A DNA stretch of 64,000 nt, taken from contig JBFFED010000002.1 of NCBI GenBank assembly GCA_041559015.1, forward strand, positions 1,027 to 65,026. Reading direction: 5' to 3'. Origin of the DNA: Thermoplasmata archaeon (GTDB taxonomy: Archaea > Thermoplasmatota > Thermoplasmata > UBA10834). The translations under genes were made by a program, and so were the position numbers. Positions 2,937-62,410 of the stretch are shown here, piece by piece; positions within the stretch are counted from its first letter, which is position 1, and each line of letters starts with the position of its first letter. The notes beneath the pieces were generated by a model. The model made no database searches. It was not told the DNA's origin and was given only the letters and a program-made list of their open reading frames with translations.

Positions 2937-3218
2937 GTGACTGCCGTGGAAGAGCTGGCCCTGGGCCTCCTGCTGATCATTTCAGCGTTCTTCCTAGCTC
3001 TCGCCCTGATGTCCTACAGGCGGAGCGGCGTCAGGGCCATCATATGGGTGTCTCTCGCCCTCTCAGCCCATGTCGGGGCGACCCTGCTCATGGTGGCCGC
3101 TATCATCGTCAACAGTTCCGTAGACGACGCGACCCGGCTCTACATGGTCATCGCTGACGCGGCCGCCCTCGCGCTGATCCTCGCCTTGGGGATCGTGGGG
3201 GGAAGGCGAAGTGGATGA
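2937..3218 (+). CDS. Small 3-TM membrane protein upstream of HTH regulator
   Basis: Three hydrophobic segments; overlaps the start of the next gene. Confidence 0.6.
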   Translation: MTAVEELALGLLLIISAFFLALALMSYRRSGVRAIIWVSLALSAHVGATLLMVAAIIVNSSVDDATRLYMVIADAAALALILALGIVGGRRSG

Positions 3219-3795
3219 CCCTCTCCAGCTCGAGAACAGGAAGCGCATATTCGAGTGCGTGAGGAGCAACCCCGGCCTCCACTTCAGGGAGATACAACGC
3301 AGGATCAACATGCCAATCGGCGTCCTCGACTACCATCTCAACTACCTGGCCCAGAAGGGTATCGTCGTGGTGAGGAAGCAGGAGGGTTTCTCGCGGTACT
3401 ATCCCGGAGGACATATCACGGCTGAGAAGATGCGGCTCCTGTCATGCCTCAGACAGGAGATACCCAGGGGCATCATGCTCTACCTCCTGAGGAACCCGGG
3501 GGCGACGCACGGGCAGATCCTGGCCAGGTTCTCAGTCTCCGGTGGCACGCTCTCGTACCATATCAAGAAGATGTTGTCACTCGGCGCGATCAAGGTCGAG
3601 AAGAAGGGTAGGGAGTCGCATTTCAGCGTGGTCGACCCTGTGGCGGTGACTGACCTCCTGATAGTCTACAGGAGGACGTTCCTGGACAAGCTGGTCGATG
3701 ACTTCGTCGCAGTTCATTCCATGGGGGCCGAGAGTGAAGACGCACGGGCGGTACCTTCGCGCGCGGAGAGCAGCGAGGTCAAGAACAGCGATTGA
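3211..3795 (+). CDS. Double winged-HTH regulator (COG3398/ArsR-like)
   Basis: NPGLHFREIQRR...LDYHLNYL and NPGATHGQI...LSYHIKKM repeats. Confidence 0.85.
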   Translation: MDDPLQLENRKRIFECVRSNPGLHFREIQRRINMPIGVLDYHLNYLAQKGIVVVRKQEGFSRYYPGGHITAEKMRLLSCLRQEIPRGIMLYLLRNPGATHGQILARFSVSGGTLSYHIKKMLSLGAIKVEKKGRESHFSVVDPVAVTDLLIVYRRTFLDKLVDDFVAVHSMGAESEDARAVPSRAESSEVKNSD

Positions 3796-3803
3796 GGACC
3801 GCT

Positions 3804-5051
3804 CTAGTCACGTCCGCCCTTGTAGTATCTGTTGTTCTCCAGGGTCACTGTCTCAGCGGGGTCATCCTTCCCCCTGCGGGAGATGTACAGCGCGCTGACG
3901 CCGCTACCGATGACGGCGCCGCCTACGAGGATCCCCGCGGCGACGGACATGACGGATGAGCCGAATATCCCACCGTCCTCAGGAGGTCGGATCACTCCGC
4001 CATCGCCTCCTCCGGTCGCGGCCGACGCGAAGATGCCCAGGCTGGGATCCAGCGAGATTGCGGCCACGTCCCTGTCTATCGGCGATGAGAGGTAGAGTCT
4101 GAGGCACTCTCCGTCCGTGCCGTAGTGCGCGGTCGAGTCGGCAAGTGAGCTGTTTCCGGCCGACCAGTTCAGCATTATCTTGTTCGCCCAGGCGAAGTAG
4201 CCCATGGGCACCCCGTCCTCGACGAACGCGAACATCTGTTCCTCGGTCTGCCGGTACTGGAACTTGTGCACGATCGGTGAGGTGCCGTTCGTCTCGTTCA
4301 CGGCAGGGTCGCTGGTGGTGACGCCACTTGACTGATAGCCATAGAACCGATATGGTTCGTCGCTTGGCGCGATGACCATGCTGCCTGCCTCCATCACGCA
4401 CAGGTTCATCTCGACCGCAAGCCTGTTGACATAGATCATCTTGTTGAGCCTCAACACCATGTCGAACTTCATCTCCGTGGACCCGTTGACGTCGATCTGA
4501 TGGTCGGAGAACCCGGGATAGGCTGCAACCCGGTTGTCTGTTGATACCTGGAATGTGAACTGGACCTCTGCCCACTCATGGATGATTTCGACTCCTGGCT
4601 GAGCAGTGGTGCCAGTGCCGGTGGTGCTCCCCGGGAGGCGCTTGGTCATGTCGACCACCGCCCTCAGGGCGACTGTCACCGCGCTGCCCTTCTCACTGGT
4701 CGTCTTCGAGGGACCTACGACCTCCCAGGAGACGCCCTCCAACGAAGCCTGATATGCCCAGTCGGCGAAGGGATTCTCAGCGGTCTCGCTCACATTGTAG
4801 CCGATGAATGAGGAGACCGTGAAGCCGTATCCGTTGCCCGAGGAATCATCGGCCGCCCGAATCATGCCTGATGGCTGGAGCTTCGAGATGTCGATGGTCG
4901 CGTTCTCAGTCGCGATGGTGATGCCGTCAGCATCCTCATCATATACGATATCCATCTCCGTGGCGTCCGCTGGGAAAGACGGTAGTGCCGAACCGGCGGC
5001 GAACAGCAAGAATGCTGTTCCGATGGCCGCCAGAACCCATCGTGCGAGCAT
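3804..5051 (-). CDS. Secreted, C-terminally membrane-anchored surface protein
   Basis: Signal-like MLARWVLAAIGTAFLLFAAGSA; C-terminal TM helix and short basic tail. Confidence 0.7.
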   Translation of the reverse strand: MLARWVLAAIGTAFLLFAAGSALPSFPADATEMDIVYDEDADGITIATENATIDISKLQPSGMIRAADDSSGNGYGFTVSSFIGYNVSETAENPFADWAYQASLEGVSWEVVGPSKTTSEKGSAVTVALRAVVDMTKRLPGSTTGTGTTAQPGVEIIHEWAEVQFTFQVSTDNRVAAYPGFSDHQIDVNGSTEMKFDMVLRLNKMIYVNRLAVEMNLCVMEAGSMVIAPSDEPYRFYGYQSSGVTTSDPAVNETNGTSPIVHKFQYRQTEEQMFAFVEDGVPMGYFAWANKIMLNWSAGNSSLADSTAHYGTDGECLRLYLSSPIDRDVAAISLDPSLGIFASAATGGGDGGVIRPPEDGGIFGSSVMSVAAGILVGGAVIGSGVSALYISRRGKDDPAETVTLENNRYYKGGRD

Positions 5052-43342: not shown

Positions 43343-43759
43343 ATGAAGTTCGTCAAGCTTTCTCAATCCGAGTTCGAGGAGATCAGGAAGCTGTACGAGG
43401 GGGTCATGTCCCAAGCCTGCTACGGCCTCTTCTTCCGAGAGGGCATGATACTCGGCGAGGAGATGTCAAAGATCGCCATGCAGGAGCCCGAGAAGTACTT
43501 CGAGATATGCGCGAACCTGTTGCGCGCGCGCGGGTGGGTGGACAACATTGTCTTCGAGGAGTCCACCGCCGTGGCCGAGGGGTCGATCGAGGCTTCGAGC
43601 ACGGCGAACGGGTGCGCCACATGCCACCGGCTGAGGGGCATCGTGAGGAAGGTCTACGAGGCCCAGATGCACAGGCGGCTGCACTGCGAGGAGATAGAGT
43701 GCATGAGCAGAGGGGACAAGCGCTGCGTCTTCAAGGTGGAATCTGTAGGGGGAGAATAG
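43343..43759 (+). CDS. Stand-alone V4R domain protein
   Basis: ARGW; CHRLRGIV; CEEIECMSRGDKRCVF. Confidence 0.8.
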   Translation: MKFVKLSQSEFEEIRKLYEGVMSQACYGLFFREGMILGEEMSKIAMQEPEKYFEICANLLRARGWVDNIVFEESTAVAEGSIEASSTANGCATCHRLRGIVRKVYEAQMHRRLHCEEIECMSRGDKRCVFKVESVGGE

Positions 43760-43760
43760 G

Positions 43761-44108
43761 ATGGAACTCAAGCCTGCCCTCAGGTCGCTCAGGAGCAGCT
43801 GCGGGTCCGTGGCGTCCGCGGTCATCAGCAGGGACGGCCTCGTGATAGCCGCCGACATGCCGGAGGGCGTGTCGATGGAGACATTCGCGATCATGTGCGC
43901 GACCCTGATGGGCGCCGCATCGACGGCGAACTCGGAGTTGCGTGTGGGGACGCCCCAGCACATCATAGTCGAGTCGGAGGAGGCGAAGATGGTCGCGGTT
44001 GGCGCTGGGCGTAAGGCCCTCGTCGTCGCGGTCATCGGCAAGAAGGCCGACGCCGCGCTCGCGATCAAGAAGCTCGACGAGATGGCTGAGACCATCAAGA
44101 TGATATGA
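43761..44108 (+). CDS. Roadblock/LC7 (MglB-like) protein
   Basis: SAVISRDGLVIAADMP...FAIMCATLMGAA. Confidence 0.88.
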   Translation: MELKPALRSLRSSCGSVASAVISRDGLVIAADMPEGVSMETFAIMCATLMGAASTANSELRVGTPQHIIVESEEAKMVAVGAGRKALVVAVIGKKADAALAIKKLDEMAETIKMI

Positions 44109-56128: not shown

Positions 56129-56136
56129 TATAAATA
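56129..56136 (+). promoter_or_regulatory. TATA box of the GTPase operon
   Basis: TATAAATA about 30 nt upstream of ATG 56166. Confidence 0.6.
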
Positions 56137-56165
56137 CGGACGTGCTTATTGACTTGCGATTCTGA

Positions 56166-56675
56166 ATGCCCACTGGAAGATACATCATCAAGCTCTGTCT
56201 CCTTGGGGACGGCGCAGTGGGGAAGACCAGCCTCGTGAGGAGGTTTGTCTTCGACGTGTTCGATGACAAGTATCTCATGTCCTTCGGGACCAAGGTCTCG
56301 AAGAAGAGCTTGAAGGTGGGCGAGGCCAATCTGGACCTGATGATATGGGACATCCTCGGCCAGAAATCGCAGGAGTCACTCCACGCGGCGTACTACAGGG
56401 GCGCCTCGGGCGCGCTCGCGGTGTGCGACTTCACCAGGCCGGAGACCATGAAGAACCTCAGGGGATGGTTGGACAGCTTCAGGTCTGTGGTCGGCGATAT
56501 GCCTGTGATCATCCTGGGGAACAAGACTGACCTCGAGAAGGCGTTCACTTCAGCCGAGCTGGAGGCGTTCGCCAAGGAGGTCGGGTGCAGGTCCCTGGAA
56601 ACGAGCGCCAAGACAGGGCTCAACGTCGAGTCAGCGTTCCAGGAGCTCGGCAAGACCGTCATGGAGGCTGTCTGA
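56166..56675 (+). CDS. Rab-like small GTPase
   Basis: G1 GDGAVGKT, G3 WDILGQ, YYRGA, G4 NKTD, G5 ETSAK. Confidence 0.92.
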   Translation: MPTGRYIIKLCLLGDGAVGKTSLVRRFVFDVFDDKYLMSFGTKVSKKSLKVGEANLDLMIWDILGQKSQESLHAAYYRGASGALAVCDFTRPETMKNLRGWLDSFRSVVGDMPVIILGNKTDLEKAFTSAELEAFAKEVGCRSLETSAKTGLNVESAFQELGKTVMEAV

Positions 56676-57607
56676 TGCGCTCTCTGCCCTTCTTCGTCAT
56701 GCCCGGCATCGCCCTCGCGCACCTGCGCGAGGAGCTCGAGATAGTCGAGGGCGACCAGCGCGCCCGGCTTATGCTCTACAGGTACGGCCAGAGGTGCGGC
56801 AGGGCCCTGGTCGAGAGCTTCGGCCTCTCCTGCAAGGACCTTTCCGAGGTCAGGTCCATAGTCGAGCCGATCTGGATGGAGGCGGGGCTGAGCAGGCTCA
56901 GCATAGAGTCGCTCGAGGAGAGCGAGATCATAGTGAACCTCGAGGACTCCATCGAGGCGAAGGAGGGCAACACGTGTGACTTCGCCCGGGGATACCTGTC
57001 CGGGATAGTCTCGCAGCTCATGTCTGAGAGGTACGAGGTGGACGAGGTCGAGTGCGCGAGCCGCGGCTACATGATATGCGTCATGCAGGTATACGAGGTC
57101 GTCGACGACCTCAGGCCCAGCAGGCATGAGGAGCCCGAAGCCGTCAGGAAGTACAGCCTCGACTCCGGCTACTCATACCTGATCAAGGAGGAGATCCCGG
57201 ACCAGGCGTTCGACATATTCGTGGACGCCTCGAAGAACGGCGTGCCCTGCCTGTGCGTCACCAGGGAGTACCCGGAGAAGCTCAAGGACAGATACGACCT
57301 CAAAGCGGTGCCCTTCCTCTGGCTGTCCATGGACCAGGAGAGGAGCTACTCCAGGGACCCGTCGAACGCGGCGCTCCTCTATTCCGACATCAAGACATTC
57401 ATCTCCGAGAACCCGGGGTGTATGGTGCTGTTGTCCGGTGTGGAGTACCTGATATCCCAGAACGGTTTCCAGAAGGTGCTCAAGCTGCTCCAGCACATCA
57501 ACGACAAGATCGCGGTGACCGACTCGACTATGCTCACGACCATAAGCCCGCTCACGATCCAGGAGCAGGAGCTGAAGCTCCTTGAGAAGGAGATGCGGAC
57601 CTTCTGA
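56675..57607 (+). CDS. V4R domain + DUF835-like domain protein
   Basis: CDFARGYLSG...EVECASRGYMIC; C-terminal CVTREYPEKL, FLWLS, GVEYLISQNGF; TGATG overlap with the GTPase. Confidence 0.8.
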   Translation: MRSLPFFVMPGIALAHLREELEIVEGDQRARLMLYRYGQRCGRALVESFGLSCKDLSEVRSIVEPIWMEAGLSRLSIESLEESEIIVNLEDSIEAKEGNTCDFARGYLSGIVSQLMSERYEVDEVECASRGYMICVMQVYEVVDDLRPSRHEEPEAVRKYSLDSGYSYLIKEEIPDQAFDIFVDASKNGVPCLCVTREYPEKLKDRYDLKAVPFLWLSMDQERSYSRDPSNAALLYSDIKTFISENPGCMVLLSGVEYLISQNGFQKVLKLLQHINDKIAVTDSTMLTTISPLTIQEQELKLLEKEMRTF

Positions 57608-57623: not shown

Positions 57624-58076
57624 ATGAAGTACGGTCTTCTCATCTGTCCCAGGTGCGGTATGGCCAAGGGCGTGGAGGCCAGCAGGAAGACCACTACCTG
57701 CCAGTGCGGCAGGGAGATAGACCTCCGCCGGGTGAAGCTGAGGTACACTACTGACTCTCCCCTCGAGCTGGCGGACTCGGTCGCCAAGGCCAACGCCGCG
57801 CTCAGAGGGGGTCAGCAACTGCCGCCTGAGAAGAGGCCAAGGAGGAAGGACCCGTTCTTCGTCATCGCGGAGAGGGCGAAGGCGGTCAAGGACCCCGTCG
57901 AGAGGATGAAGGTCATCGCCAAGGGCCTGACGGATTTGAAATCGTCCTTCGGGGTGGAGGACGTAAGGCGCGTGGTCGTCTTGATGGGGAAGGGCTCGGC
58001 CGAGGACGTCATCAAGGTGCTCCGAGAGCACAACCTGGTCTACGAGACCGCGGACGGCCGGTTCAAGGCGGTCTGA
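57624..58076 (+). CDS. Zn-ribbon protein (DUF1922-like)
   Basis: ICPRCG...TTCQCG. Confidence 0.7.
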   Translation: MKYGLLICPRCGMAKGVEASRKTTTCQCGREIDLRRVKLRYTTDSPLELADSVAKANAALRGGQQLPPEKRPRRKDPFFVIAERAKAVKDPVERMKVIAKGLTDLKSSFGVEDVRRVVVLMGKGSAEDVIKVLREHNLVYETADGRFKAV

Positions 58077-59975: not shown

Positions 59976-60464
59976 TCAGGCCGAAACCTGCCTGAACCCC
60001 CGGGTGTAAAGAAGGAACGAATCCACAACAAGGGCAGCCCCAAGCACTGCGATAAGAGTCAACCCCAAGTCGAACGCGCTCAGGTCGACGAGCTGGTTGA
60101 CGATCCCTAGGAATATCAAGTAGGAGCCTGCTATGACCTCCACAGCGATGTACAGGGCGGGCAGTACCGAGGGAGAGGGAGGGGATCGAATAATCCATTC
60201 ACGACTGCTGCGGAACGATGCAATCGTGAGAACCACTCCGAAGATGATAGCCACGGACGCGTACAGTATCGCGTCTTCGATTAGTCCAGACCCCAGAGCA
60301 ATCATGCCGGCCCCGAGGATGAGTAGCAGGAAAGTGGCAATTGCAGGATTGTCCACGACGTCAAACAATCGAGGCTTCCTTATAACGATTCTGGTATTGC
60401 CCCTTGATGGGCGACTACTTACTGACAATGGAATTCGCGAACACTCTGGCTCGAGCGAGTTCAA
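59976..60464 (-). CDS. Hypothetical 4-TM protein (accessory; true start probably downstream)
   Basis: Four hydrophobic segments; the track start lies inside the att-like motif. Confidence 0.5.
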   Translation of the reverse strand: MNSLEPECSRIPLSVSSRPSRGNTRIVIRKPRLFDVVDNPAIATFLLLILGAGMIALGSGLIEDAILYASVAIIFGVVLTIASFRSSREWIIRSPPSPSVLPALYIAVEVIAGSYLIFLGIVNQLVDLSAFDLGLTLIAVLGAALVVDSFLLYTRGFRQVSA

Positions 60465-60477
60465 TGCTCGCCTGGTC
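60445..60477 (+). repeat. att-like copy 3, inverted relative to copies 1-2, over a stop codon
   Basis: Reverse complement gaccaggcgagcattgaactcgctcgagccaga matches 30389-30421 at 32/33 nt. Confidence 0.85.
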
Positions 60478-62410
60478 TTCTCTTACCATGAACCTTCGTC
60501 TTCCTCGTCGAGGCTTTCCCCGCCAGCTTGTCGAAGTAGTGCGCGACCACGCAGCTATCCGCGCACTTGCCACAGCGCGTGCACGCGCGGTCGTCGACGG
60601 TGATGCGGTCCTCTAGCTTGATCGCGCGCTGAGGACAGGTCCTGACGCATATGCCGCACTTCGCGCACATGTTCGCCCTCAGGACAGCCCTCGCGACCCT
60701 GTCGAAGTACTTCGTAGCGTCCTCGGGCGTCTTCCCGACGGAAGATACCTGCCCTCCAACGAAGACCTTGGCGTCCGCGTCCTTGGAGCGCACCATCGCG
60801 ACCCCGAAGTCCTCGACCAGGTTCACATCGCCGACTGTCTTGAGCAGCTCGGATATCTCCTGGAGGCCTCTCGTCTCAGGCATCCTCAGCACGGCCTCGA
60901 CTGAGTATCCGCCTGCGGTGCACGGGCTGACCCCTTTGATGACATGCAGCTCCAGGGTGTCGGCCCTCTTCGGCCTCGCCTCCATCCCCAGCCTGTCGGC
61001 GAGGGCGCGCATCTTGGGCGGGAGCTGCTTCCACCGCCAGAAGCCATATTGGACGAACTGCCTCGGGAGGCCGTTCTCTGCCGCCCACGAGTGCAGTCTC
61101 TGCTCCCACGCCTTCGCCAGCTCGGGGCTCATGCGGGATATCTCCGCGCACTCGCTCGCGAGCGCGGAGGGGCACATCCAGCACCCCACCCTCTCGATGT
61201 CCTCGTCGTAGAGTGGGTTGTACCTGAGGCCCCGCCAGAGTATGTAAAGCCAGACATCGAGCGCCGTCCAGCCCCTTATCAGGTTGGCCACCATCTGTCT
61301 GGGCACGAACGGGTTCCTCTCGATCAGCTCCAGCCTCGATCGTGAGAATGATTCCAGCCTGCGGTTCCCCTCGACCGTGAGAGTGCCGTCGGGGAACGAC
61401 TCCTCGACGGCCTTCGCTGCCGGGGCGAGCTTGCAGACCTTGCAGCACCATCTGAAGTCCTTCGCGGGCGGCCCGAAGGCGGGGAAGTTGTCATCGAACG
61501 CGTCTCCCGCGGGGGCGGTGACGAGCCTGAGCGAGTTCTCCTTCGCGAACCTCTTAACGTAATCCCTGGTTTTCGGATGTTCGAGGCCGGTGTCCACGAA
61601 GATGGCGGTGAAGTCCTTGGTGACCGACGACACCAAGTCCAGGACCACCAGGCTGTCCTTGCCTCCGCTGAAGGAGACTGACAGCAGGAGGCCGCTCCTG
61701 GACATCGCGTCCTTCAGCTCGTGCTCCGCCTTGGCCTTCTTCGCCATCAGGTGCGGCAGGTTCGCCTTAATCAGGTCCTTCGGCCACGCCCTCTTCCCGG
61801 GCCTGAGCGGCCCGGACTGCGTGATGTCCCTGACCTTCACGCCCTTGGCGGAGTTCCTCAGCTCGGCCGCGTTCACTTTGGCGCTCCCGCAGCCGATGAA
61901 CTTGCCCATCTGCACGATCACCTCATCCCCGGCGCTGATGCCCGGGTCGAAGGACGAGATGTACTCCTTCGGGACGTAATTGCCCTTCATGTGCCCGTCC
62001 GTCTTGTTGAGCAGAATCTCCTTCTTGGGGCGCATGCGCGCGAGCATGCGCGCACCGTCTATCCTCAGGGTGAGGCGGTAGTCTGCCCGCTCGAGGTCGT
62101 AGCTCAGCAGGGCGATCCTCCTGCCGTCCACTATCACCTCCTCGGCCCTGTCCTCTCCCGAGGTCTTGTTGAGGACAGTGATATCCGGTATGAGTTGCTG
62201 AACGCCAAACTGTCGCAGGAAGAGATACCTGAGCCTCCTCTTGGTGCCCTCGAGCGCCAGCCGGACTTCCCCCGGCGGAGAGAGATCTATCTCCCGGCCG
62301 TTGTGTCCGCACCTCCCGCATGTCATACCAATCAGAGGCACGTTGCAGCTGTCGCACCAGTGAAGCGTGGGTGCGTGGTGATGGCGCTGAATCCTCACGA
62401 GTCGAAGCAA
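60461..62410 (-). CDS. PAPS-reductase-family protein with Zn-ribbon, PUA-like and C-terminal 4Fe-4S domains
   Basis: WCDSCN, SFSGGKDS, WCCKVCK, RVGCWMCP, CAKCGICVRTCP, CTRCGKCADSC; start may be GTG 62398. Confidence 0.85.
   Translation of the reverse strand: MLRLVRIQRHHHAPTLHWCDSCNVPLIGMTCGRCGHNGREIDLSPPGEVRLALEGTKRRLRYLFLRQFGVQQLIPDITVLNKTSGEDRAEEVIVDGRRIALLSYDLERADYRLTLRIDGARMLARMRPKKEILLNKTDGHMKGNYVPKEYISSFDPGISAGDEVIVQMGKFIGCGSAKVNAAELRNSAKGVKVRDITQSGPLRPGKRAWPKDLIKANLPHLMAKKAKAEHELKDAMSRSGLLLSVSFSGGKDSLVVLDLVSSVTKDFTAIFVDTGLEHPKTRDYVKRFAKENSLRLVTAPAGDAFDDNFPAFGPPAKDFRWCCKVCKLAPAAKAVEESFPDGTLTVEGNRRLESFSRSRLELIERNPFVPRQMVANLIRGWTALDVWLYILWRGLRYNPLYDEDIERVGCWMCPSALASECAEISRMSPELAKAWEQRLHSWAAENGLPRQFVQYGFWRWKQLPPKMRALADRLGMEARPKRADTLELHVIKGVSPCTAGGYSVEAVLRMPETRGLQEISELLKTVGDVNLVEDFGVAMVRSKDADAKVFVGGQVSSVGKTPEDATKYFDRVARAVLRANMCAKCGICVRTCPQRAIKLEDRITVDDRACTRCGKCADSCVVAHYFDKLAGKASTRKTKVHGKRRPGEH

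Follow-up and report, generated by a model that had tools for sequence, protein, structure and literature searches.

In several described systems the gene of a small GTPase is conserved beside that of a dedicated non-GTPase partner, with which it makes up a signalling switch, as in MglA-MglB, the actinobacterial conservons CvnA-D and the Rup group 1 neighbourhoods (PMC4316618). The Rup proteins have eukaryote-type G1-G5 motifs and a G3 Asp, and they show no coupling to MglB (Wuichet & Sogaard-Andersen 2015, PMC4316618). No conserved partner has been assigned for the Rup-type/Rab-like proteins of Crenarchaeota (PMC4316618), and in the Asgard strain MK-D1 small GTPase genes generally lie outside operons with Roadblock, longin or TRAPPC3 genes, an absence of operons that prevents GTPases from being matched to regulators (Tran et al. 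2024, PMC10933270).

Proteins of the V4R and KaiC-like families are known from other settings. The eukaryotic TRAPP-Rab system, in which Bet3/TRAPPC3 and longin subunits serve as the GEF of Ypt1/Rab1, pairs a GTPase of this kind with a Bet3/V4R-fold protein; the homology of V4R and Bet3 has been published (PMC2253512), and zinc binding through a Cys cluster has been reported for Thorarchaeota TRAPPC3 (PMC10933270). In XylR, DmpR, PoxR and MopR a V4R “A domain” controls a P-loop AAA+ ATPase, and zinc ligation at positions of the XylR C149/E172/C175/C183 type has been established experimentally for PoxR, MopR and DmpR. Within archaeal KaiC-like modules, DUF835 serves in signalling as a diverged member of the KaiC family that has probably lost its activity (PMC5847659). 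Under the name iKaiC it appears among the output domains of response regulators in archaea (Galperin et al. 2018, PMC5847659), and REC-DUF835 response regulators occur in Thermoplasmata (PMC5847659).

The window analysed here, a stretch of 64,000 nucleotides from an uncultured Thermoplasmata archaeon (contig JBFFED010000002.1), contains a Ras/Rab-like GTPase gene tightly linked to a gene for a V4R-DUF835 protein, whereas the GTPases of MK-D1 are generally unlinked to regulators. The GTPase resembles the Rup proteins in all the features named above. In contrast to MglA-MglB, the partner is a fusion of V4R with an inactive KaiC-like domain and not a Roadblock/LC7 protein, and Roadblock joins in only one family examined; V4R is not mentioned in the Rup study (PMC4316618). 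The combination of GTPase and V4R fold is common to TRAPP-Rab and this pair, as is zinc, here as a predicted site. However, the window's V4R is fused to iKaiC, has no adjoining longin gene and no TRAPP Pfam match, and belongs to Thermoplasmatota and not to Asgard archaea. As in the XylR-type regulators, V4R is coupled to a P-loop NTPase-type module, but the protein has no AAA+, sigma-54 interaction or DNA-binding domain; its fused P-loop-type domain appears to be RecA/KaiC-like and inactive, and the active NTPase would be the separate Ras-like GTPase. The same GTPase, and not a KaiC ATPase, would be the nucleotide-hydrolysing component when the pair is set against archaeal KaiC-like modules, with which it shares DUF835.

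Organization of the locus

The two open reading frames are as the first-pass annotation had described them, a GTPase with complete G motifs and then the V4R-DUF835 protein (Table 1). The start coordinate given there, 56129, is the first base of the TATA-like box TATAAATA. Boxes of the TTATATA/TTAAATA type are found at the same distance before the ATG (30-37 nt) in 41/41 orthologous loci inspected, which suggests a short leader and a single transcript for both genes. The TGATG junction claimed earlier is present, the stop codon TGA of the GTPase (56673-56675) and the ATG of the V4R-DUF835 gene at 56675 having one A in common. A stop/start overlap is kept in the window itself and in 41 of 42 orthologous loci (NTGA 31, TGATG 10, 1-nt gap 1), and junctions are tight in distant loci too. 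Since the frames differ at every junction type seen, an in-frame read-through fusion of the two proteins is impossible.

Downstream lies a gene for a Zn-ribbon protein with weak DUF5817/DUF1922 matches below the Pfam cut-off. It is found there in 42/42 family loci versus only 6/30 distant loci, and the transcript may include it as a third gene, in this lineage alone. A search for defence-system membership gave no PADLOC matches.

Table 1. Features of the GTPase/V4R-DUF835 locus (coordinates of the window)
Feature	Position	Strand	Basis or remark
TATA-like promoter box TATAAATA	56129..56136	+	30-37 nt 5' of the GTPase ATG
Ras/Rab-like small GTPase, 169 aa	56166..56675	+	Pfam Ras 5.8e-37
Switch I S39-F40-G41	56280..56288	+	Phe for Ile of TIG, Ser for G2 Thr
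Switch II/alpha2 signature L72-H73-AA-Y76YRGA80	56379..56405	+	Leu-His specific to V4R-linked GTPases
TGATG stop/start overlap	56673..56677	+	junction of translational-coupling type, from sequence
V4R-DUF835 protein, 310 aa	56675..57607	+	Pfam V4R 1.3e-10 and DUF835 2.6e-28
Predicted structural zinc site of V4R domain	56975..57079	+	C101, E124, C127, C135
Predicted zinc ligand C101	56975-56977	+	
Predicted zinc ligand E124	57044-57046	+	
Predicted zinc ligand C127	57053-57055	+	
Predicted zinc ligand C135	57077-57079	+	
Zn-ribbon protein, 150 aa	57624..58076	+	starts 16 nt past the V4R-DUF835 stop codon

The GTPase

The GTPase consists of a G domain of ~170 aa of the Ras superfamily (PF00071; 127 bits vs cut-off 21.6), with a further match to Roc (3.9e-27). 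It contains G1 (G14DGAVGKT21), the Thr/Ser position of switch I, G3 (W61DILGQ66, with Asp62 and the catalytic Gln66), G4 (N119KTD122) and G5 (S147AK149), and the G motifs are invariant across 42 orthologs. Its C-terminus, ...GKTVMEAV, has no Cys for Rab-type prenylation, in line with the archaeal Rab-like proteins, all of which have been reported to lack a C-terminal prenylatable Cys (PMC4915359). The motifs listed in the first-pass annotation (complete G motifs, switch I SFG, an exact YYRGA and no C-terminal Cys) could all be read from the sequence, and Rab-like GTPases are indeed known already in some non-Asgard archaea, the Thermoplasmatales (Surkont & Pereira-Leal 2016, PMC4915359).

The best 60 PDB sequence matches are all Rab, Ypt/Sec4-type or Thorarchaeota Rab proteins, with Rab-2B (1e-31), Rab-21 and Thorarchaeota Rab 7ezb at the top. 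The motifs RabF1 to RabF5 are reportedly IGVDF, KLQIW, RFrsiT, YYRGA and LVYDIT; against these only RabF4 is exact, and the others match at 1/5 (RabF1, FGTKV), 3/5 (RabF2, DLMIW), 1/6 (RabF3, SQESLH) and 3/6 positions (RabF5, AVCDFT). In a quick maximum-likelihood tree with yardstick sequences, the Thermoplasmatota GTPase clade (SH-aLRT 91) falls in an unresolved polytomy with Rab, Ras/Rho and Ran. The earlier name “Rab-like” is founded on sequence similarity and not on a resolved phylogeny.

The partnered GTPases form a clade of their own in the same quick tree (34 proximal GTPases, SH-aLRT 93), with recognizable switch regions. The SFG of switch I is invariant in the family, [ST]FG is found in most V4R-linked GTPases, and other paralog clades have TIG. 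The Leu-His of switch II is shared by almost all proximal GTPases, including those with as little as 35% identity, and is missing from the long-form, C17/C63-type and eukaryotic GTPase sequences compared. Among the paralogs, no Pfam match was obtained for the C-terminal extension of the long forms, nor for the cytoplasmic tail of a 1409-aa surface protein encoded beside the C17 GTPase. Assignment to MglA was rejected on the retained G3 Asp62 and the lack of an adjoining Roadblock gene, and the role of a metal chaperone supplying zinc to V4R was set aside by reasoning, the GTPase being of the Ras family and not of the G3E class.

The V4R-DUF835 protein

The Pfam V4R match (PF02830) covers residues 91-139 with 41.6 bits vs a cut-off of 31, and the sensor-fold domain spans approximately residues 10-142 of the 310-aa protein, which is 72-92% identical across the family. 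In Foldseek searches with the N-terminal domain of an AlphaFold2 model (pLDDT 80.7), the best matches were the phenol sensors PoxR, MopR and DmpR (E ~1e-6), alongside Bet3/TRAPPC3 chains, including Thorarchaeota TRAPPC3, with E 8e-6 to 1e-4 (TM 0.6-0.7 on the target); MJ1460 and H-NOX were also matched. The fold shared with Bet3, as earlier proposed, is therefore there, and the modelled domain resembles phenol sensors at least about as well as Bet3. The likeness to the Bet3/TRAPPC3 family is at the fold level only, with no Pfam TRAPP match and no adjoining longin gene.

Besides the profile match above cut-off, the domain carries a cluster of putative zinc ligands, whose C-x22-E-x2-C-x7-C spacing equals that of XylR C149/E172/C175/C183. 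Orthologs show little or no variation at these residues, which are kept in ~20/29 distant homologs; they are lost in the most distant homologs and in a natural fusion, P0123 (see below), so that not every member need bind zinc or sense a ligand. Judged by the fold matches of the model and by the spacing of the predicted zinc site, the V4R half is a sensor-type domain. The MsvR redox regulator (NF053755) was rejected as an identity of the protein: its 40 bits fall far short of the cut-off (220), the alignment is confined to the V4R part (profile positions 130-236), and an HTH is absent.

The C-terminal half matches DUF835 at residues 176-307 (98.9 bits vs cut-off 33.1) within a KaiC/FlaH-like domain of approximately residues 160-310, for which Foldseek returned FlaH 4yds (2e-4) and KaiC. 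It thus combines the DUF835 profile and a RecA/KaiC-like fold with a lost Walker A motif: [AG]xxxxGK[ST] was found in the DUF835 half of 0/71 homologs, whereas the KaiC-like protein of the neighbouring type has GEPGTGKT. DUF835 recurs as a C-terminal, output-type domain behind many different N-terminal sensors. This inactivated KaiC-like half, which the earlier interpretation left out of account, ties the GTPase module to archaeal KaiC-type signalling.

Conservation of the pair

Across the phylum, the GTPase gene adjoins a full-length V4R-DUF835 gene in 86/91 loci. Within the family (42/42 loci, all from distinct species) it lies directly upstream; the whole 12-kb neighbourhood is syntenic there, so this count alone carries little weight. 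More telling are the full-length V4R-DUF835 homologs of ~13 other families of the class (30 loci, 28-57% identity), in which the GTPase adjoins in 26 (25 upstream on the same strand, 1 divergent) and the other neighbours are gone, the genes other than that of the Zn-ribbon protein being kept in <=5/30. The pairing extends to other classes (18/19 loci, with the order inverted in 5), so that it spans ~21 families in several classes with the GTPase upstream, downstream or divergent. Three loci with a full-length V4R-DUF835 homolog and no adjoining GTPase are L061, L062 and L067. The same arrangement was seen in independent gene calls with precomputed Pfam matches, and 27/33 near-complete genomes of the class that lack V4R-DUF835 have no Ras-like gene at all. 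Neighbourhood conservation had been named in the first-pass annotation as a check, and the pairing passes it.

In a single case, the 527-aa protein P0123, Ras, V4R-like and DUF835 parts are naturally fused. A search with P0123 as query retrieved P0123 alone, and library representatives of 475-556 aa, considered as further GTPase fusions, proved to be tandem-DUF835 or 7TM-DUF835 proteins. The AlphaFold2 model of P0123 has confident domains (pLDDT 79) and a pTM of 0.45, with no confident interface between the GTPase and its partner. The mirror-tree partial r of GTPase versus V4R-DUF835 is 0.31, no higher than that of control neighbour pairs.

Paralogous operons and extended clusters

The genome itself has 5 Ras-like genes, 13 DUF835 loci and 9 loci resembling KaiC-like ATPases, and only one such adjoining pair. 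It also contains V4R-KaiC-DUF835 and V4R-Roadblock operons, both conserved in distant families; the former, found in 9 distant loci, encodes an active KaiC-like ATPase, to which the Walker A GEPGTGKT belongs. No Roadblock gene lies beside the GTPase, the nearest, at 43761-44108, being 12 kb away and the other on another contig. In one family of another class, the order is GTPase, V4R-DUF835, V4R and Roadblock-LC7 (Pfam Robl_LC7 2.2e-9), and in another family a second GTPase gene is followed by that of a V4R-only protein. The module had been called minimal, which is doubtful given the second V4R protein, Roadblock/LC7 protein or extra GTPases of these clusters. Its placement outside Asgard archaea holds, the two genes being conserved and apparently co-translated across Thermoplasmatota loci.

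Discussion

The pair is kept together phylum-wide, and the two proteins therefore very probably form a single signalling module; that they act together physically is, in our judgement, highly likely. From the observed domain identities, gene overlap, phylum-wide linkage, fusion, clade-specific switch residues and paralogous operons we infer how the pair may bind, in which direction regulation might run, and what kind of ligand and output it could have. The reading that we prefer, and hold to be reasonably probable, is that of a cognate pair in which a soluble Ras/Rab-like GTPase switch is served by a dedicated partner protein, a zinc-stabilised V4R sensor joined to a dead KaiC-like domain. Both genes would be expressed from one TATA-box promoter with coupled translation, favouring similar amounts of the two proteins. 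V4R would be the sensor domain for a small molecule (or for thiol/redox state), and the V4R-iKaiC protein would dock onto its GTPase at the switch I/II face, thereby linking occupancy of the V4R pocket to the nucleotide cycle, through altered GDP/GTP exchange or hydrolysis or through read-out of the GTP form; the iKaiC domain would relay the state to other partners in the expanded KaiC-type signalling network of this genome. The module would then parallel the paralogous V4R-KaiC-DUF835 operon, with the GTPase replacing the ATPase as the nucleotide-driven element. The particular direction in which the partner controls the nucleotide state of the GTPase, as opposed to being its effector, is plausible but falls somewhat short of probable.

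That V4R acts like its homolog Bet3 and itself catalyses GDP/GTP exchange, which would make the pair a minimal prokaryotic counterpart or relative of TRAPP-Rab, seems unlikely to us. The fold matches to Bet3/TRAPPC3 chains from TRAPP complexes and to Thorarchaeota TRAPPC3 speak for it, as does the homology in the literature; the cluster with a second V4R and Roadblock-LC7 assembles three TRAPP-core folds plus a substrate, the V4R-only protein behind a second GTPase points to V4R as the GTPase-cognate domain, and the clade-specific residues belong to the switch regions, which are the binding site of GEFs. In TRAPP, it is reportedly the longin subunits Bet5/Trs23 that provide most of the surface for Rab binding and catalysis, and Bet3 adds to it. 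However, neither a longin nor a Roadblock gene adjoins here or in most loci, ligand-sensor V4R domains are matched at least as well as Bet3 and the zinc site is kept, the Pfam TRAPP profile finds no match at E <= 0.01, and the P0123 model yields no interface; in this non-Asgard lineage the TRAPP likeness may be a convergent use of a common sensor fold. We are similarly sceptical of the broader proposal that the Bet3-fold V4R is a direct regulator of the nucleotide state of the Rab-like GTPase, gated by a small molecule or by redox and joined in some lineages by a second V4R and Roadblock.

The hierarchy might also be reversed, with the GTPase upstream as a timer whose GTP form binds V4R-iKaiC and switches its oligomeric state or partner binding, so that V4R-iKaiC is the output. 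The GTPase retains catalytic Gln66 and all G motifs and could thus cycle by itself; it would play the part of the KaiC-like ATPase in the paralogous operon, where the same two accessory modules surround an active ATPase, and varied N-terminal sensors carry DUF835 as their C-terminal domain of output type (PMC5847659). On the other hand, a V4R sensor would then act after the switch, an uncommon place for a domain of the input type, and the evidence is the same as that for the cognate pair, the results not separating regulator from effector; we regard this arrangement as a minority possibility, of slightly more weight than the exchange-factor proposals. The bare alternative that the two genes have no functional relationship, their adjacency being inherited synteny or chance and the overlap mere packing in a small compact genome, could draw on the syntenic 12-kb neighbourhood within the family, on the undistinctive mirror-tree signal and on short gene overlaps, which are commonplace in compact archaeal genomes. 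It is hardly tenable, since the pairing persists where all surrounding synteny has gone, where the gene order is inverted and, once, as a fusion, and spans ~21 families in several classes; with ~5 Ras-like genes in a 1.78-Mb genome (a rough estimate of 1,800 genes), a given gene would come to lie beside one of them by chance in well under 1% of cases.

In the searchable literature, which did not extend to Makarova et al. 2017, no description of DUF835 or V4R linked with small GTPases was found. Few partners of small GTPases are known in archaea, and the pair described here is one-to-one, phylum-wide and probably translationally coupled; with the fusion and the clade-specific switch residues, it can be expressed and assayed directly. 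The cognate pair connects small-GTPase switches to the network of KaiC-like signalling that has been proposed in archaea; by analogy with the paralogous operon it suggests that GTPase and KaiC ATPase are interchangeable around the same V4R and iKaiC accessory pair. It also makes a question of eukaryotic origins testable, namely whether, in a prokaryote, a Rab-like GTPase can be under the control of a Bet3-fold protein. If V4R does regulate the GTPase, joined in some lineages by a second V4R and Roadblock, a functional triad of Bet3 fold, Roadblock-longin fold and Rab-like GTPase would exist in non-Asgard archaea, and TRAPP-Rab would be either a descendant or a re-invention of a more ancient ligand-gated GTPase module of archaea, one that is also plugged into KaiC-type signalling.

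The GTPase gene and its overlapping partner

The window encodes a Ras-family GTPase followed directly by a V4R-DUF835 protein. The G1, G3, G4 and G5 motifs, the exact YYRGA stretch, the SFG of switch I and a C-terminus devoid of cysteine, all listed by the first-pass annotation, are present in the sequence, and so is the TGATG junction that it described, in which the TGA stop of the GTPase and the ATG of V4R-DUF835 have one base in common. The two genes lie in different frames and cannot be read as one. Their layout, which leaves no space for a separate promoter before the V4R gene, makes a single transcript likely. A TATA-like box (TATAAATA) begins at 56129, the start that had been assigned to the unit, and a TATA-type box is located 30–37 nt 5′ of the GTPase ATG in 41 of 41 orthologous loci inspected. 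A 340-aa, GTG-started version of the V4R-DUF835 reading frame was rejected as the gene, because the listed homologs are nearly all of 310 aa.

A Zn-ribbon gene, which starts 16 nt past the V4R-DUF835 stop, is found at that position in all 42 loci of the same family, and the gene of a 649-aa PAPS-reductase/PP-loop protein is syntenic in 41 of them. The latter protein also has a 4Fe-4S dicluster region at its C-terminal end and weak PUA- and TGT_C2-like matches that do not reach the Pfam cut-offs.

Genes and motifs of the GTPase/V4R-DUF835 pair and of related modules
Feature	Location	Position	Strand	Evidence or remark
Ras-family GTPase, 169 aa	window	56166-56675	+	Pfam Ras 5.8e-37, also Roc, Arf; NCBIfam small_GTP
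G1	GTPase	G14DGAVGKT21		
Switch I	GTPase	S39-F40-G41		
G3	GTPase	W61DILGQ66		
RabF4-type stretch	GTPase	Y76YRGA80		
G4	GTPase	N119KTD122		
G5	GTPase	S147AK149		
V4R-DUF835, 310 aa	window	56675-57607	+	Pfam V4R 1.3e-10, DUF835 2.6e-28
Zn-ribbon protein, 150 aa	window	57624-58076	+	weak DUF5817/DUF1922 similarity
PAPS-reductase/PP-loop protein, 649 aa	window	60461-62410	-	PAPS-reductase/PP-loop domain 9.7e-42
V4R, 138 aa	window	43343-43759	+	Pfam V4R 1.6e-11
Roadblock/LC7, 115 aa	window	43761-44108	+	Pfam 7e-10; one base after V4R gene
V4R (146 aa), KaiC-like ATPase (224 aa), stand-alone DUF835 (168 aa)	own genome, contig C4	46102-47734	-	tight operon
Long-form Ras-like GTPase	own genome, contig C48	2803-3618	-	
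Long-form Ras-like GTPase	own genome, contig C73	2028-2849	-	
Ras-like paralog (178 aa), then 1409-aa protein	own genome, contig C17	2036-6902	+	
Ras + V4R-like + DUF835 fusion, 527 aa	L079 (P0123)	2941-4524		one genome
Ras-like GTPase / V4R-DUF835 / V4R-only / Roadblock-LC7	L123, L124, L126	e.g. L123 1588-4072	-	one family only
Ras / V4R-DUF835 / Ras / V4R-only	L139/L140; L118/L119	L139/L140 1865-4480		doubled module

Conservation of the pairing

Within the family, a GTPase ortholog lies directly upstream of V4R-DUF835 in 42 of 42 loci from distinct species (56–88% identity for the GTPase, 72–91% for V4R-DUF835), with a stop/start overlap in 41 of them (NTGA in 31, TGATG in 10) and a 1-nt gap in the other. 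This count alone is weak evidence, because the entire neighbourhood is syntenic within the family. A genome search across the class yielded full-length homologs at 28–57% identity in about 13 further families, of which 30 loci were examined. In 25 of these a Ras-like gene directly precedes V4R-DUF835 on its strand, and in one it is divergent; one locus ends at a contig edge and three have no Ras-like gene. The other neighbours seen in the window are mostly gone from the same loci (6 of 30 for the Zn-ribbon gene, at most 5 of 30 for the rest).

Elsewhere in the phylum, in other classes, 18 of 19 loci have a GTPase adjoining V4R-DUF835; in five of these the gene order is inverted, with the GTPase downstream. 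The arrangement is borne out by independently made gene calls carrying precomputed Pfam hits. One genome encodes a natural fusion of the three domains. Full-length V4R-DUF835 is missing from 33 near-complete genomes of the class; Ras-like genes are entirely absent from 27 of these, and the remaining six have only long-form or distant ones. The pairing is kept in the family, in further families of the class and in other classes, and because it outlasts synteny loss, inversion and fusion in about 21 families, neither chance nor inheritance alone can account for it. Of the three full-length V4R-DUF835 genes without an adjoining GTPase, two (L061 and L062, in the related genomes G063 and G081) have flanks with weak similarity to a KaiC-like ATPase on the opposite strand (tblastn E 1e-6 to 2e-13).

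Family of the GTPase and its paralogs

By sequence, the GTPase is nearest to Rabs: the 60 best PDB matches (1e-31 to 2e-26) comprise only Rabs, Ypt/Sec4-type proteins and the Thorarchaeota Rab 7ezb. To this extent the earlier label “Rab-like” holds; it does not extend to the defining tests for Rab membership, which the protein fails, RabF4 being the only exact RabF motif and the prenylation cysteines being absent. In a quick tree with thin sampling, the clade of Thermoplasmatota GTPases (support 91) remains part of a polytomy that includes the Rab, Ras/Rho and Ran yardstick sequences. Rab-like proteins without C-terminal cysteine and of inconclusive phylogeny had already been reported from a “Thermoplasmatales archaeon” and Aciduliprofundum (PMC4915359), as the first-pass annotation noted for some non-Asgard archaea. 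By definition, the GTPase can also be counted among the prokaryotic Rup proteins, a family with G motifs of the eukaryotic type and no coupling to MglB (PMC4316618).

In the archaeal part of the tree, one group (support 93) holds 34 of the 38 V4R-proximal GTPases and a second one the other four, with the long-form paralogs and the C17/C63 type each apart from them. The proximal clade carries [ST]FG in switch I, where other paralogs and Rabs have TIG, and Leu-His (L72-H73) followed by YYxGA in switch II. Switches I and II are the surfaces that GEFs, GAPs and effectors read. Since these residues are specific to the partnered clade, they suggest that the partner binds at the switch face.

The window-bearing contig, C2, belongs to an assembly of 1.78 Mb (60% G+C, 88% complete), and the closest public loci are from uncultured “Thermoplasmata/Thermoplasmatota archaeon” MAGs. 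The genome has five Ras-family and 13 DUF835 genes, and the window pair is their only neighbouring combination. Two of the paralogs are of the long form (271–273 aa), with about 100 additional, conserved residues at the C-terminus that have no Pfam match; such extended proteins are also present in L069-L075, L077 and L087. In several other families the long form opens a GTPase/GTPase/V4R-DUF835 operon. Another paralog precedes a protein of 1409 aa, in which an N-terminal signal or transmembrane segment is followed by a large extracellular part, a transmembrane segment around residue 1232 and some 150 aa of cytoplasmic tail, the latter without Pfam hits.

Architecture of the V4R-DUF835 protein

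The AlphaFold2 model of V4R-DUF835, obtained from 51 sequences, contains two domains (pLDDT 80.7, pTM 0.58). In Foldseek searches against the PDB, the N-terminal domain matches the phenol-sensor V4R domains of PoxR, MopR and DmpR (E ~1e-6) and Bet3/TRAPPC3 (8e-6 to 1e-4), including chains of TRAPP complexes and Thorarchaeota TRAPPC3, which bears out the claimed Bet3 fold; YslB, the M. jannaschii V4R protein, BcsD and H-NOX are matched too. Residues C101, E124, C127 and C135 form a predicted zinc site, whose C-x22-E-x2-C-x7-C spacing is identical to that of the XylR zinc ligands C149/E172/C175/C183, the equivalents of which bind zinc in PoxR, MopR and DmpR. These residues are invariant or nearly so among orthologs, and about two-thirds of the distant homologs retain them; the most distant group and the fusion have lost them.

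The C-terminal domain matches FlaH (2e-4) and KaiC. DUF835 has been described as “iKaiC”, a divergent, possibly inactive KaiC-family domain that provides the output of archaeal response regulators among the Methanomicrobia and Thermoplasmata (PMC5847659). The absence of a Walker A motif from every V4R-DUF835 homolog examined fits this label. DUF835 is common among 1.84 billion representative proteins searched, with 1403 matches (E ≤ 1e-10); the full V4R + DUF835 architecture makes up only about 20–25 clusters at 50% identity, whose named members are all Thermoplasmatota, Methanomassiliicoccales or “Euryarchaeota” MAGs.

Related V4R modules

The genome has two more V4R genes, each tightly packed with a partner related to nucleotide switches. 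One precedes a Roadblock/LC7 gene, an order found in at least 15 loci of distant Thermoplasmata families. The other stands in an operon with a KaiC-like ATPase, which has an intact Walker A (GEPGTGKT), and a stand-alone DUF835, an arrangement conserved in nine distant loci (L106, L110-L117). This operon parallels the GTPase module, with the ATPase standing where the GTPase stands in the window pair; V4R and iKaiC accessory modules are thus found around a KaiC ATPase in one operon and with a Ras-like GTPase in the other. After the stand-alone DUF835 gene of the KaiC operon comes a GKGKTT P-loop protein, by appearance a putative cobalamin adenosyltransferase.

The module had been proposed to be minimal, a description that does not extend to other classes, where the cluster is larger. 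In ten loci of four families, V4R-DUF835 is followed by a V4R-only protein whose closest similarity is to the V4R half of the fusion. In one family the V4R-only gene is succeeded by a genuine Roadblock/LC7 gene (Pfam 2.2e-9), so that the four-gene cluster brings together the three TRAPP-core fold types and a Rab-like GTPase; in another, a second GTPase precedes the V4R-only gene. The order Ras / V4R-DUF835 / Ras / V4R-only makes a doubled module in L139/L140 and L118/L119. DUF8166 and a DUF87 gene, the latter a putative HerA-type ATPase, come after the V4R-only gene in L137, L138 and L141, and L137 also has ubiquitin-like system genes (UQ_con, YukD, SAMP2) close by.

Possible mechanisms

The GTPase and V4R-DUF835 very probably act together physically, and a sensor-plus-switch pair is the best-supported model. 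The V4R domain would bind a hydrophobic small molecule or report thiol/zinc redox state, roles that such domains have in XylR-type activators and MsvR; the V4R-iKaiC protein would touch the switch face of its GTPase, and the iKaiC domain would join the module to other partners. The protein may set the nucleotide state of the GTPase in a GEF- or GAP-like manner, a possibility that we rate somewhat below even. That it is instead an effector of the GTP form seems rather unlikely.

A TRAPP-like role, in which V4R would be the exchange factor of a Rab-like GTPase, is suggested by its Bet3 fold and by the existence of GTPase plus V4R-only pairs and of a Roadblock-containing cluster, but the sensor-type zinc site, the absence of a TRAPP profile match and the lack of a longin or Roadblock partner at most loci make it unlikely. 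Nor was an interface predicted: the natural fusion was modelled, since the window genes are not readable as one frame, and its domains are confident (pLDDT 79.1), but a pTM of 0.45 means that their packing is not reliably indicated. Mirror-tree analysis of the two proteins gave no distinctive signal.

Each component of the sensor-plus-switch pair is known, the archaeal Rab-like GTPases (PMC4915359) as well as the V4R-Bet3 homology (PMC2253512) and the identity of DUF835 as iKaiC (PMC5847659). The conserved pairing is not mentioned in the literature searched and is apparently undescribed there, although Makarova et al. 2017, outside its coverage, might list the neighbourhood; nor did the literature searched contain anything relevant on V4R + Roadblock + GTPase or V4R + KaiC. 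V4R and small GTPases of archaea are treated together there only by Tran et al. 2024, who stress that an Asgard strain lacks operons of this kind (PMC10933270). The module is classed with the known prokaryotic small GTPases whose cognate partner is encoded in the same operon.
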